Shown: in pieces, positions 1,263 through 22,322 of the stretch | Position numbering within the stretch: position 1 is the first letter of the stretch | How the letters are laid out: each line of letters opens with the position of its first letter | NCBI RefSeq assembly: GCF_963921235.1 | Contig: NC_086097.1 | Span: 70,558,001 to 70,622,000, forward strand | From: Mobula hypostoma | Taxonomy: Eukaryota | Reading direction: 5' to 3' | DNA: 64,000 nt | The notes under the pieces: model-generated | The model's database searches: none | Seen by the model: the letters and a program-made list of their open reading frames with translations, nothing else | What the model was told of the DNA's origin: nothing | Made by a program: the position numbers and the translations under genes

Positions 1263-3037
1263 GACAGTGTTGTTTTTAAGTGCCTTTCCTAAGTTTACTG
1301 TCTTTGATTTACCATGACAATCATGTCAAAGTGCTGTGAGACAGTGCAGGAGACATGACATTAAATATACTGGTAATGTGATTGTGAAGCATTTGGTTTA
1401 ACCTTTGAGGCCAGGCAAGTAAACACTGTTAGTTCAATTCCTATTGGATTTTTCCCACTTTTGACAAGGATAAAAGGCAATGTCAGGATCACTCTGAGAA
1501 TATTTCATTTTGATTTATAAAATGTTAATTGGCTTTGGCTAGAGTAGAATATCTTTAGTTTGCCTTCCTTCCCAAAGGCTCTCATTGAAGTTAACCTTTC
1601 TTTGAAAAGGCTGCAAGGACACTTTAAATGTCTGCAGAACTTGAAGGTCACAGGTCTGACAGGGGGTTGGCCACGTTCTGCCAGACCACATCACCTGCCC
1701 AGGGCAAAATTCTACACTTTTACTGCATAATGTAGCTGGTCACACGGTCACGTCAGTGACGATTGTCAAGTATGGCTATTTCCTGGTTCAAGTTTATTCT
1801 TTTACAATAGAGATATCATATGGCATCTTACATATTATGCCCTCACTGCCTGCCTGTCACTTTTAAGTTTTTGTTTAAGATTGTTATTGATTGTGTAACT
1901 TCAATGTTGCTGTGATTGGCAGATAGATGAGGAGACTCTGAGAACTTATGCTTTGTAGAGATTATGCTGTCAGCCACGAACCTGATATAGGGTCAATGAG
2001 ATATATCCTATTGCGTGCCTGTTTTGTTGTTATTTAGGCTGTTGTTAATTTTCTCAATATGTACCGTACATAAATTACTGTGTACTGACTTTAAACTCTG
2101 AATCTTTCAACAAACCCTTATTCATCCTGTCACTAACATCATGGAGCTTACCAGAAAAACACAATACAAAATCTCTGTGCTTCAAACCCCCGCTCTGTTT
2201 CATCAAGCTAAGTTCAAAAGTTCAGATGATTTAGAAATACAAACAGATGGAAAAAGTTAATTGCTTCTTCTATTTGCTTTATGATATAACACGCTGTTTA
2301 CAATTCCATACTTTTAATTTAACACATATACATTTTAGACAATTTTCCATTTGAATTTACTCCCTTTTGAGACCTTATCTTTCTTAAGCTGTTCTACATT
2401 CATTTTAACTATTTTCCCCACTTTTCTAATTATGTTCACCATCATTAAATATTCTTTTTGATTTTCCAAATACATTTAGTTATCCGTCAAGACAACAGTT
2501 TATTGTATCTGTGACACCAAATCTGAGGCACTTCAATATAGTACAAAATTTATAAATAGAAAAATGGGTACTTCTGAGAAAAGAATGGATTCTGTACATG
2601 TATCTTTTTAATGAAGGGAGATCTGCGGGCATATTGTAACTCCCAACATATGGAAGGAATATTGCATGCTGACTGATTCAGCCTTGTCATTAGCATGAAG
2701 TCTGATCAACCTCTACTGCTGACTGCCACGTGAGTTCTGTCTATGGCCTGATCTGGAAGCTCTTTCCACTCGCCACTACCTTTAAAGTAAGCAACGGTGA
2801 GCAATCTGATATGATCAGAATGAGAATTTCAATAACTGGGACCTGTAAAAACTAGCTAACTAGTGATCTGTGCATATTCTGTAAACACAGTTTTAAACAT
2901 CTCTATCAAAGCACATTAATGCAAGAAGAAGCTAACTCTGGACTAAAAAGTCCTAGATGTAGAAATTGTGCATGGCTTGATTTACCTAAAGAAACTTTTA
3001 TACAGAAGAATGGCTGACAAAAAAAAATTGCTCTGCT

Positions 3038-3290
3038 AACTCGCACCAATAAGTTGGATCTGGCAGTTTAACTGACTCACAGTACTAAGTTTGACCTGAT
3101 AGTTTAACTAACTAACACCATTAAGTTTATCCTGGTGGTTGACCTTTATGGGGACCACTACCACTAAGTTTGACCTGGTGATTTAACTTAATTGTCATCA
3201 CTAAGTTTAGTCTAGCATTTTAGCTAATTAGCACCCAACTAAGTTTGACCAGGTTGGGTTAACTAACTAGCACCGCCAAGATTGACCCAC
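3038..3290. repeat. Degenerate minisatellite, ~36-bp unit, ~6-7 copies
   Basis: Recurring unit close to actaagtttgacctggtagtttaactaactagcacc. Confidence 0.8.
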
Positions 3291-21490: not shown

Positions 21491-21622
21491 TTCTTTTTAA
21501 CTTTTAAACTTCCCTCAATGCCTAAGTGTAACAGCTCACCTGGCACCAATACCTGTAATGAACTTGAAGGTTCTTAATCCAGTATATGGTTTTGAGTCAA
21601 GCTGTAATCTAGAGCGCCATTT

Positions 21623-22188
21623 GTGTGTGTTCATCCATCGTTGACGTCAATGAGGACCTCGACACCATTATTGATGGTGTCGAGACTAGCGCGTGATTTG
21701 GATTTAAGTGAGGGAGATTTGCGCAGCGTCAGCCTCACTCTCTCTTCCCAATTCCCATCTGGATCCAGTGGCAAGACAGAGTCATGACGGCTGGAGATGG
21801 GACTAGGTGCAGTGGATGACCAGGACGTCTTCTGTGTCTTGTCCTGCTCTACACATTCCACGACGCTTGCGGAGATCGCCTTCTTGACCGTTGGACCTTC
21901 CATTGATCTCGTCCACTCAGTCCACTGGAGTCTGTCTTCACATGCTGGGATAGACAACTCCCTATCTCACCGAGGGTTTGAGACCTGTCGGCTACCCTCA
22001 CCTGGTTTAGCCGGCTTGTCGAAGCCGTTGCCCGGGGTCTGTCTGCTGTCGCATGCAAACAGCTACGGGGAGCCACAGGTGAGAGTTGAGTGCCAGGTGG
22101 GGTCCAAAGGTGGACTAACCGCCTTGAAAAGGACACGACATGTTCCCCCACCAGAGGTGCTACCCCTCCCTGATACCCCATACACCCC
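21623..22188 (-). mobile_element. Young non-autonomous RTE-derived element (5' UTR joined to 3' end), 566 bp, perfect 12-bp TSD
   Basis: agagcgccattt at 21611-21622 and 22189-22200; (AC)n tail; CpG-rich; RTE-like 5' UTR motif gcgcaaatctccctcacttaaatccaa; no RT or EN coding. Confidence 0.8.
21994..22188 (-). ncRNA. HDV-like self-cleaving ribozyme at element 5' end
   Basis: P1 GGGGUGU/AGACCCC; P2 ACUCUCACCUG/CAGGUGAGGGU; P3 GGC/GAC; L3 UCCCCGUA plus hairpin; P1.1 CC/GG; GCAAC; P4 CGGCUU(CGAC)AAGCCG; J4/2 GCUAA with catalytic C at 22010. Confidence 0.8.
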
Positions 22189-22239
22189 AGAGCGCCATTT
22201 ACCCCTGATATTACTGGTCTAGTAAACCCTGCTTGAGAG

Positions 22240-22322
22240 CACCACACACAAAGTGTTGGAGGAACTCAGCAGTTAGGCAGCATCTGCAGAAGTGAATGAA
22301 CAGTCATCCCTTCTTCAGGACT
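22240..22322 (-). mobile_element. Internally deleted Penelope-derived repeat
   Basis: ggaggaactcagcag..ggcagcatct...cccttcttcaggact, same family as 5171. Confidence 0.6.

Follow-up and report, generated by a model that had tools for sequence, protein, structure and literature searches.

The minus-strand insertion at positions 22188 to 21623 of the stretch of Mobula hypostoma DNA analyzed here (64,000 nucleotides [nt] of contig NC_086097.1, referred to in its entirety as the window) is a dead copy of a high-copy, non-coding, and non-autonomous retroposon of the non-long terminal repeat type, designated family A. Family A is probably a short retroposon derived from a long interspersed nuclear element (LINE) of the RTE type, whose 5′ end is set by a predicted self-cleaving ribozyme resembling that of hepatitis delta virus (HDV). 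This interpretation is built on the anatomy of the insertion, the family to which it belongs, the distribution of 5′ ends within that family, a homologous LINE in the same genome, and the conservation and covariation of the head, all of which were observed directly.

The presence of delta-type ribozymes at LINE 5′ ends and the existence of ribozyme-bearing non-autonomous derivatives are already established, HDV-like ribozymes at the 5′ ends of R2, R4/Dong, L1Tc, baggins, and RTE having been described as freeing promoter-less elements from co-transcripts (PMC6765202, PMC3774820). The printed examples found concern insects, nematodes, trypanosomes, and the ribosomal DNA (rDNA)-specific R2, and a full-text literature search for HDV-like ribozymes in combination with “shark” returned no related paper. 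What is new here is a hairpin within loop L3 of the head, the scale on which such heads occur (several thousand copies, in addition to sister families), and the group to which the host belongs. Look-alike sequence was also encountered in contigs from four organisms, and words in common were present in runs labelled as twelve organisms, none of these runs being recorded as RNA.

The insertion, its family, and the distribution of 5′ ends

Read directly from the sequence, the insertion comprises 566 nt, is flanked by a perfect 12-bp target site duplication (TSD), and terminates in an (AC)n tail, precisely as the preliminary description had reported, while the first base after the TSD is 22188 (G1), which coincides with the predicted cut of the ribozyme (Table 1). 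Element nt 1 thus corresponds to window position 22188, and positions were mapped on a natural intact copy. The claimed absence of a transfer RNA (tRNA) head was borne out, as no tRNA was detected in the element by ARAGORN and no tRNA, 5S, or 7SL match was obtained at E ≤ 10 in Rfam scans; the head is a homologue of a LINE leader rather than of a small-RNA gene of the kind that heads the short interspersed nuclear elements (SINEs) transcribed by RNA polymerase III (Pol III). Stop-free frames of at most 144 amino acids (aa) appear in the frame listing, to which no Pfam search was applied. A 111-aa stop-free frame reaching the 3′ end was considered as a coding sequence and rejected, since open frames (138 and 144 aa) exist in other phases as well and the majority sequence of the family deviates at its stop.

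The multi-copy nature of the element, upon which the preliminary description depended, was readily confirmed. The window's own 3.48-Gb assembly yielded 4,422 first-look candidates, and among the 40 that were scored, the window's place matched at 100% and the other 39 at 94 to 95%, nearly all of them covering query nt 1 to 561. A 30-nt pattern from the ribozyme core (P1.1 to J4/2) produced 3,719 matches with no more than 3 mismatches, compared to 0 for the reversed pattern, and a 30-nt piece of the 3′ module produced 2,276 matches, compared to 0 for its control. The possibility that the surplus of heads over modules reflects heads carried on other bodies was rejected, as all 12 of the copies selected by the core proved to be ordinary members of family A, and the gap was put down to CpG decay together with a two-base subfamily difference in the 3′ pattern. 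The median difference from the family majority was 2.6% among 41 full-length copies, compared to 4.2% for the window copy.

The window copy harbors one mismatch in each of stems P1 and P3, and it had been predicted from this copy that the family would read ACACCCC in the 3′ strand of P1 and GCC in that of P3. In the first alignment, all 20 other copies carry ACACCCC, and all but two of these 20 (loci L004 and L017, with ACC) carry GCC; both stem mismatches are, therefore, private to the window copy. Contigs from four organisms similarly show C>G at 22039 and T>G at 22042 (plus strand) in nearly all of their depth.

These first 20 copies had been picked by full-length score and were hence biased towards complete 5′ ends, and two samples without selection on the 5′ end were then taken. 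The first, selected by the 3′ 158 nt, comprised 29 other copies, of which 21 start at nt 1 to 3, one starts at nt 6, and seven are truncated, starting at nt 26, 45, 71, 230, 329, 386, and 400; the second, selected by the 30-nt core, comprised 12 copies, with eight starts at nt 1, one at nt 10, and one each at nt 16, 31, and 155. When both unbiased samples are taken together, 29 of 41 copies start at nt 1 to 3 and 10 of 41 are truncated beyond nt 10. Full-length copies begin at GGGGTGT, as had been anticipated, directly after unrelated flank and often abutted by a TSD. A simple repeat finder detected an exact direct repeat of at least 8 bp at 24 of 48 distinct loci, which in 16 abuts the first element base. 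TSDs range from 6 to 14 bp, tails consist of (AC)n, (AAC)n, or (AACC)n across copies, and the copies are distributed over many contigs, with unrelated flanks and differing TSDs rather than a fixed site in 28S rDNA. The hallmarks of target-primed reverse transcription, namely, TSDs, a microsatellite tail, and variable 5′ truncation, are all present, and the combined pattern of 5′ ends, TSDs, and tails is that of target-primed reverse transcription of an RNA beginning at G1.

Among the 24 distinct loci where the TSD measures at least 8 bp, 17 have a TSD starting with A, the first base of the tail units, in agreement with the link between the microsatellite-like tail and the first TSD base that is reported for RTE-related retroposons (PMC6007223). 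At L032:1026-1091, a full-length family A copy is directly preceded by its own nt 71 to 136 in inverted orientation, an arrangement that matches the 5′ inversions attributed to twin priming. In contigs from two organisms, position 22012 or 22024-25 is joined to 22131-22150, skipping 118 to 136 nt; such joins over 22012-22150, which would drop the 5′ strand of P2, P3, L3, P1′, and part of P4, may represent head-deleted variants or other module combinations.

The predicted ribozyme head

The head presents the complete HDV element order, P1-P2-P3-(L3)-P3′-P1′-P1.1-P4-J4/2-P2′, in the form of a nested double pseudoknot (Table 1), and P1, P2, P3, the L3 UCC with its facing GG, P4, J4/2, and the C at 22010 were all recovered where the preliminary description had placed them. 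In the window copy, six of seven P1 pairs are formed, the mismatch being G.G at 22183/22039, P2 has 11 pairs (counting G.U or U.G), and P3 (GGC/GAC) contains one G.A; the first letters of L3, UCC (22071-69), face GG at 22033-32. The stretch GGGCAAC is presumably identical to that of the HDV genomic ribozyme. In the Rfam alignment, the consensus of the HDV ribozyme family RF02682 reads ..GGCAACGg..cCGGCUAA.., the same letters being found here.

Two additions, neither of which features in the preliminary description, extend this core. The first is a peripheral domain in J1/2 that is closed by the helix P1.2, in which nt 11 to 20 (22178-22169) pair with nt 92 to 101 (22097-22088). J1/2 totals 95 nt, P1.2 leaving 3 nt past P1 and 1 nt ahead of P2, and the domain folded alone has a minimum free energy (MFE) of −40.5 kcal/mol in a fold that contains the P1.2 helix. 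In a fold alignment of 26 natural sequences (nine from family A, nine from sister family B, and eight from sister family C, both introduced below), which was assessed with the full pseudoknotted model, 89% of the P1.2 cells are paired, and changes between families keep the pairing (UA18/UG8 and UG17/UA7). The motif GGGGUGU is doubled, occurring at nt 1 to 7 and again at nt 10 to 16, where it supplies the 5′ strand of P1.2; this second copy could also pair with P1′ in an alternative register. One family A copy (L119; G000:C1:29812132-29812751) starts exactly at nt 10, the second GGGGTGT, which fits either cleavage in the second register or the loss of one 9-nt repeat unit. In the family C head of L105 (alignment A1, columns 46-66), a (GGT)n/G-run is expanded inside J1/2, which shows that the interior of J1/2 tolerates changes in length.

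The second addition is a hairpin in L3 (“P3.1”), through which L3 reaches 28 nt, made up of the 8-nt UCCCCGUA, the 5-bp hairpin, and one base before P3′, compared to approximately 7 to 8 nt in the canonical short L3, with UCC and GG present and conserved. All three families keep the stem but differ in the loop (UUGCAUGCG versus AACACGC), and 98% of the stem cells are paired, two pairs showing a few compensatory cells. An assignment of this hairpin as the true P3 was rejected, its loop being without the CC required for P1.1 and the hairpin not abutting P1′. The last base of L3 is extruded into the solvent in the crystal structures of HDV ribozymes, and, by analogy, an insertion at this base would be sterically plausible. 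With RF02682 (HDV-F-prausnitzii) and the HDV genomic and antigenomic ribozymes, the head has in common the helix order, the L3 UCC, the P1.1 GG followed by GCAAC, and a J4/2 GCUAA with a C at the catalytic place, and it differs from them in the 95-nt J1/2 domain, the 28-nt L3 with its hairpin, and a score of 13 bits against a gathering score of 44 bits.

Table 1. Positions of the features of the family A insertion within the window
Feature	Window positions	Strand	Remarks
Upstream TSD copy	22189..22200	-	aaatggcgctct, 12 bp, identical to 21611-21622
P1 5′ strand, GGGGUGU (nt 1-7)	22182..22188	-	Predicted cleavage directly 5′ of 22188
J1/2 peripheral domain (nt 11-101)	22088..22178	-	Closed by 10-bp P1.2
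P2 5′ strand (nt 103-113)	22076..22086	-	92% of cells paired; in MFE and centroid folds
P3 5′ strand, GGC (nt 115-117)	22072..22074	-	Pairs with 22043-41
L3 proper, UCCCCGUA (nt 118-125)	22064..22071	-	C119 and C120 form P1.1 with G157 and G156
Extra hairpin in L3, “P3.1” (nt 126-144)	22045..22063	-	GCUGU, 9-nt loop, ACAGC; intact in 40 of 41 family A copies
P3 3′ strand, GAC	22041..22043	-	18 of 20 other copies in the first alignment read GCC; A at 22042 private to this copy
P1 3′ strand, AGACCCC	22034..22040	-	Family reads ACACCCC; G at 22039 is a private mutation
P1.1 GG (nt 156-157)	22032..22033	-	G156 in 33 of 41 copies (CpG site), G157 in 40 of 41
P4 hairpin, CGGCUU/CGAC loop/AAGCCG (nt 162-177)	22012..22027	-	22027-22 with 22017-12
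J4/2, GCUAAAC (nt 178-184)	22005..22011	-	Candidate catalytic C at 22010 (nt 179)
P2 3′ strand (nt 185-195)	21994..22004	-	Pairs with 22086-22076
Non-coding body (nt 196-504)	21685..21993	-	Homologue of the RTE-like LINE's 5′ leader
Perfect 11-bp hairpin, 5-nt loop (nt 505-531)	21658..21684	-	Specific to family A; self inverted match
3′ terminal module (nt 534-560)	21629..21655	-	Judged by eye, partly similar to the final ~32 nt in the RTE-like LINE and in families B and C
Microsatellite tail, (AC)n	21623..21628	-	ACACACAC; (AAC)n or (AACC)n on other copies
Downstream TSD copy	21611..21622	-	12 bp, perfect match to 22200-22189

Across the 26 sequences, the model pairs 88.9% of 854 cells, compared to 35 to 48% when the partners are slid by 1 to 3 columns. 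The covariation score is 0.160, compared to 0.113 for shuffles, with 0 of 500 shuffles scoring as high, and two-sided changes were counted in 34 cells where 14 were expected. Nearly all of this signal resides in P4, which is compensatory at 4 of 6 pairs (CG13/GC8, CG13/UA8, UA11/CG8/UG6, and GC15/AU3). U118, C119, C120, C179, and A181 to A183 are invariant in 41 of 41 family A heads, the J4/2 C being conserved and not covarying. The base that follows this C is U in families A and B and C in family C, and families B and C retain GC(U/C)AAA, bar scattered copy-specific changes. L3 positions 4 and 5 (nt 121-122) are CC in family A and AA in families B and C, AA being present in other organisms too, with the P1.1 CC kept. 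The between-family differences are located at L3 positions 4 and 5, J1/4, the base after the J4/2 C, the sequence of P4, the loop of the L3 hairpin, and the interior of J1/2; the variation falls where HDV-like ribozymes vary, which supports the assignment.

A lenient HDV descriptor (J1/2 of at most 120 nt and L3 of at most 35 nt), written post hoc after the structure had been seen, matched 6 of 9 family A rows and no family B or C row, the latter because no sampled copy is free of lesions. It returned no match on either strand of the window (128 kb), where the window copy fails because of its two mutations, and none in 2 Mb of random sequence generated by a first-order Markov model from the dinucleotide composition of the head. 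These null results bear on the notion that the fold is a chance match in a G/C-rich leader, in which case the element would be a LINE deletion derivative without any ribozyme. Shuffled heads fold as stably as the natural one, and the model required a 95-nt J1/2 and a 28-nt L3, both of which are compatible with chance; the descriptor controls, the gap between true and slid partners, and the fact that the letters read by the family had been correctly predicted, blind, at two positions render such a coincidence very improbable.

Sister families and an RTE-like LINE

Relatives of family A were found with a pattern consisting of element nt 363 to 381 followed by letters defined as not being the element's base, which produced 1,949 matches, compared to 5 for the control, and these fell into two groups, designated families B and C. 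Family B is older, one copy being 68% identical to element nt 5 to 381; head and leader are in common up to nt 381, beyond which approximately 150 nt are different and end in ...GATGGACAACCACCA. Family C includes a broken LINE copy (C1:59920300-59926000, minus strand), whose head and leader are 73% identical to element nt 3 to 427 by blastn, with by-eye similarity continuing to approximately nt 504. This copy harbors an endonuclease (EN)-like frame and reverse transcriptase (RT) frames in the same reading direction, with weak RVT_1 matches, and its C terminus contains a CxxC...H...H motif, followed by a stop codon and approximately 45 nt of 3′ untranslated region (UTR) to the end. It is broken by frameshifts and carries a foreign insert. 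Inside its RT region (oriented positions ~2833 to 3132) sits a 100-aa frame (FFTRRVVNLWNSLP) of the sort found at the C-terminal end of another LINE type, a nested insertion by which this copy is broken.

Two short family C copies, L098 and L099, consist of the 5′ ~590 nt of this LINE joined to its last ~32 nt, and the last ~30 nt are partly alike in families A, B, and C (CCT..TC...GA.GGAC.AAC). This build, together with the partly alike 3′ ends, suggests that the short families are internal-deletion derivatives of related LINEs. Both ends are in common with the LINE in the case of family C. For family A, for which a check for an autonomous RTE sharing both ends had been proposed, the 5′ end is homologous (73% identity over 427 nt), whereas the 3′ ~27 nt are only partly alike, the letters in common with its 3′ terminal module being, by eye, CCT..TC..GA.GGAC.AAC. 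The associated proposal that the element borrows RTE machinery gains from the existence of a homologous autonomous LINE with EN and RT and with short derivatives of its own, but no LINE with the exact 3′ end of family A was found in three pattern searches: the 5′-side junction pattern gave 12 matches, mostly family A copies with small deletions, and 0 matches were obtained both for the family A 3′ 27 nt with a sequence other than the hairpin arm before it and for the family A hairpin with a sequence other than the family A body before it. Because these patterns demand an exact or nearly exact match and let through only part of the unrelated contexts, they could have overlooked a partner that is rare or diverged.

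Homologues of the RT C-terminal fragment are single proteins of 1,030 to 1,075 aa that contain EN and RVT_1 and are 60 to 77% identical to it, their hosts being molluscs, amphioxus, fishes, corals, a starfish, and opossum, a patchy distribution over the animal phyla. On the basis of its architecture, its very short 3′ UTR, its homologues, and its microsatellite-like tails, which are a reported feature of RTE-related retroposons (PMC6007223), the LINE looks RTE-like and appears to fit the RTE clade.

Two abundant LINEs were considered as the mobilizing partner of family A and rejected. The dominant LINE of the genome was identified in a Pfam search for RVT_1 (332,530 first-look candidates, with all 150 that were scored apparently belonging to one family); it is 5.8 kb long, has an L1-like look and a poly-A tail, and has nothing in common with the element. 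Its copies (L051-L053, e.g., L051:1227-7033) are 96.5% alike and possess an open 1,264-aa frame in many places, and it looks recently active. The second (5,729 first-look candidates; L031:867-1420 and L055-L083) adjoins a truncated family A copy in L031; since 28 of 29 other copies of this LINE run on into a 3′ UTR of their own that bears an (AATTC)n-type tail, the family A copy represents just an insertion into the 3′ UTR of the LINE.

Proposed mechanism, alternatives, and known systems

The observations detailed above are real and support the following scheme, in which catalysis, co-transcription, and the mobilizing LINE are what we infer. Family A would have arisen from an RTE-like LINE by internal deletion, keeping the ~500-nt 5′ leader and a short 3′ module, and its first 195 nt would constitute a delta-type self-cleaving ribozyme with a closed J1/2 domain and an L3 hairpin. 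Source copies, presumed to be promoter-less, would be transcribed within longer host or neighbour transcripts, from which the ribozyme would cut directly 5′ of G1, fixing the exact 5′ end of the retrotransposition template. An EN/RT of the RTE type, acting in trans, is predicted to recognize the short 3′ end and the microsatellite tail, upon which the RNA would be copied into the nicked target by target-primed reverse transcription; TSDs of 6 to 14 bp, microsatellite tails, and a minority of 5′-truncated copies would be the outcome. A more specific proposal, which we advance tentatively and rate at somewhat below even chances, is that the head is an active member of an undescribed delta-type subclass, in which L3 tolerates or uses an inserted helix and the duplicated P1 strand closes P1.2 or, alternatively, serves as P1.

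A number of results weigh against the proposed ribozyme and its mobilization by an RTE-like LINE. In addition to the failure to find a LINE with family A's own 3′ end, the longest open frame among 150 scored RTE-like copies of this genome is 842 aa. The doubled P1 strand makes a second cleavage register possible at nt 10, where one of the 41 unbiased copies starts, and a sub-lineage of 6 of 41 copies (A6 and mostly A381) has an A.C mismatch in P1, yet starts at nt 1 to 2. All five core helices are fully paired in 13 of 41 family A heads. P1, P2, P3, and P1.1 are conserved and display one-sided or copy-specific changes only, with no family-level compensation; as read from the alignment, these helices rest on conservation and the slid-partner control, and covariation speaks for P4 only, a simple hairpin. 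Folded without pseudoknots, the 200-nt head attains an MFE that does not surpass that of shuffles (z = −0.07), and RNAalifold, which cannot model pseudoknots, returned for the 26 sequences a weak pseudoknot-free consensus of −17 kcal/mol that is not the HDV fold. When ~211 nt of two copies were submitted to Rfam, RF02682 was the only family of 4,227 retrieved at E ≤ 10, but with a score of 12.9 to 13.2 bits (E of 3.5 to 4) against the gathering score of 44 and with P1 misassigned, and Rfam, therefore, does not call the head; scans of 4 kb, of an 861-nt locus, and of four family C heads gave no HDV match. Finally, no HDV-like ribozyme with a hairpin inserted in L3 was found to be described in one full-text literature search, and an insertion at this location could abolish activity.

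This last consideration underlies the reading of the head as an inactive relic, according to which the L3 hairpin, a 19-nt insertion in the loop of the catalytic core, killed catalysis, the head has since been kept for other reasons or by hitch-hiking, and the 5′ end marks where reverse transcription ended on some other RNA end. The failure of the Rfam models and a stability not above that of shuffles are equally in keeping with a relic. However, the hairpin stem, the P1.1 CC/GG, U118, G123, and C179 are all kept in three families that are approximately 27 to 32% different elsewhere (copy versus copy), a degree of retention which would be unexpected for a dead motif in source genes, and thousands of copies still start exactly at the base of P1; on balance, a relic appears decidedly improbable.

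Less improbable, though still unlikely, is that the uniform G1 end represents a transcription start from an internal promoter in the leader, the fold having another role (in translation start or protein binding) or acting alongside the promoter in the manner of L1Tc Pr77/L1TcRz. A uniform 5′ end and a conserved leader would fit such a promoter equally well, L1Tc and NARTc are reported to join promoter and ribozyme in the same 77 nt (PMC3383444), and the A6 sub-lineage holds its 5′ end despite its P1 mismatch. RTEs are, however, described as promoter-less (PMC6765202), and family A has no tRNA, 5S, or 7SL head and no conserved block resembling a Pol III box, its one vaguely B-box-like stretch differing in families B and C. 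Furthermore, the start lies at the base of a 7-bp P1 in a full double pseudoknot, an arrangement that occurred 0 times in 2 Mb of random sequence, and we retain ribozyme cleavage as the preferred explanation of the G1 end.

In terms of known systems, family A fits an RTE-derived, ribozyme-headed short retroposon and not a Pol III SINE. An HDV-like ribozyme family, drz-Agam-2, was reportedly described from an RTE of Anopheles gambiae by Ruminski et al. in 2011. As presented in PMC6765202, PMC3774820, and PMC4908430, drz-Agam-2 resembles the family A head in being a 5′-terminal delta-type double pseudoknot on a promoter-less element of the RTE type, in its cleavage at the element's first base (predicted for family A), and in its long structured J1/2 insert closed by a P1.2 beside P1 and P2. 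Family A is distinguished by its setting in a large (3.5-Gb) animal genome, by consisting mostly of short non-coding derivatives in thousands of copies, by the extra L3 hairpin, and by an activity that is predicted from sequence. RTE and baggins are both described as carrying 5′ HDV-like ribozymes and no promoters (PMC6765202), and active R2 ribozymes with J1/2 loops of 216 to 498 nt have been reported (PMC3774820).

The short internally deleted elements (SIDEs) of R2 in Drosophila are similarly described as internal-deletion derivatives of a LINE that retain the HDV-like ribozyme at the 5′ end as well as the 3′ end on which target-primed reverse transcription depends (PMC3414825). They are, however, low-copy and confined to 28S rDNA, and their parent R2 encodes a restriction-like endonuclease, whereas family A is dispersed, with variable TSDs, and its parent has an EN of the apurinic/apyrimidinic endonuclease (APE) type; because of this dispersal and parentage, family A is not an R2 SIDE. 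NARTc of Trypanosoma cruzi, the partner of L1Tc, provides a parallel as an abundant and dispersed non-autonomous element with the LINE's 5′ HDV-like ribozyme, which releases it from co-transcripts (PMC3383444, PMC3185411, PMC4035085); the L1Tc ribozyme is a compact 77 nt and doubles as a promoter, and the LINE belongs to another clade (ingi/L1Tc) in a protist. In Perere-3, an RTE-clade element of Schistosoma mansoni, the 5′ end is reported to be processed by a self-cleaving Twister T-variant, i.e., by a different ribozyme class (PMC8501958).

If the proposed scheme is true, it would enable short RTE parasites to define their RNA without a promoter. A conserved L3 hairpin would imply that the loop of the catalytic core can be interrupted, which bears on the tolerance of the fold and on search models, which miss such heads, while an alternative P1 strand would allow the ribozyme to switch register or to remain functional without its first 9 nt. 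In that case, thousands of delta-type ribozymes on RTE-derived repeats could lie unrecognized in vertebrate genomes and would be invisible to the searches that have defined the distribution of this class because descriptors and Rfam models fix L3 at approximately 7 to 8 nt.

One further repeat was apparent in the upstream flank of the insertion, where the minus-strand stretch ctgcagatgctgcctaactgctgagttcctcc (window 22236-22272) displays a summed contig depth of approximately 44,000 to 136,000 in all four runs. The element's own summed contig depth in the same four runs amounts to a few thousand, and the flanking stretch is, therefore, a fragment of a much more abundant repeat; a motif resembling it is also present in locus L109.

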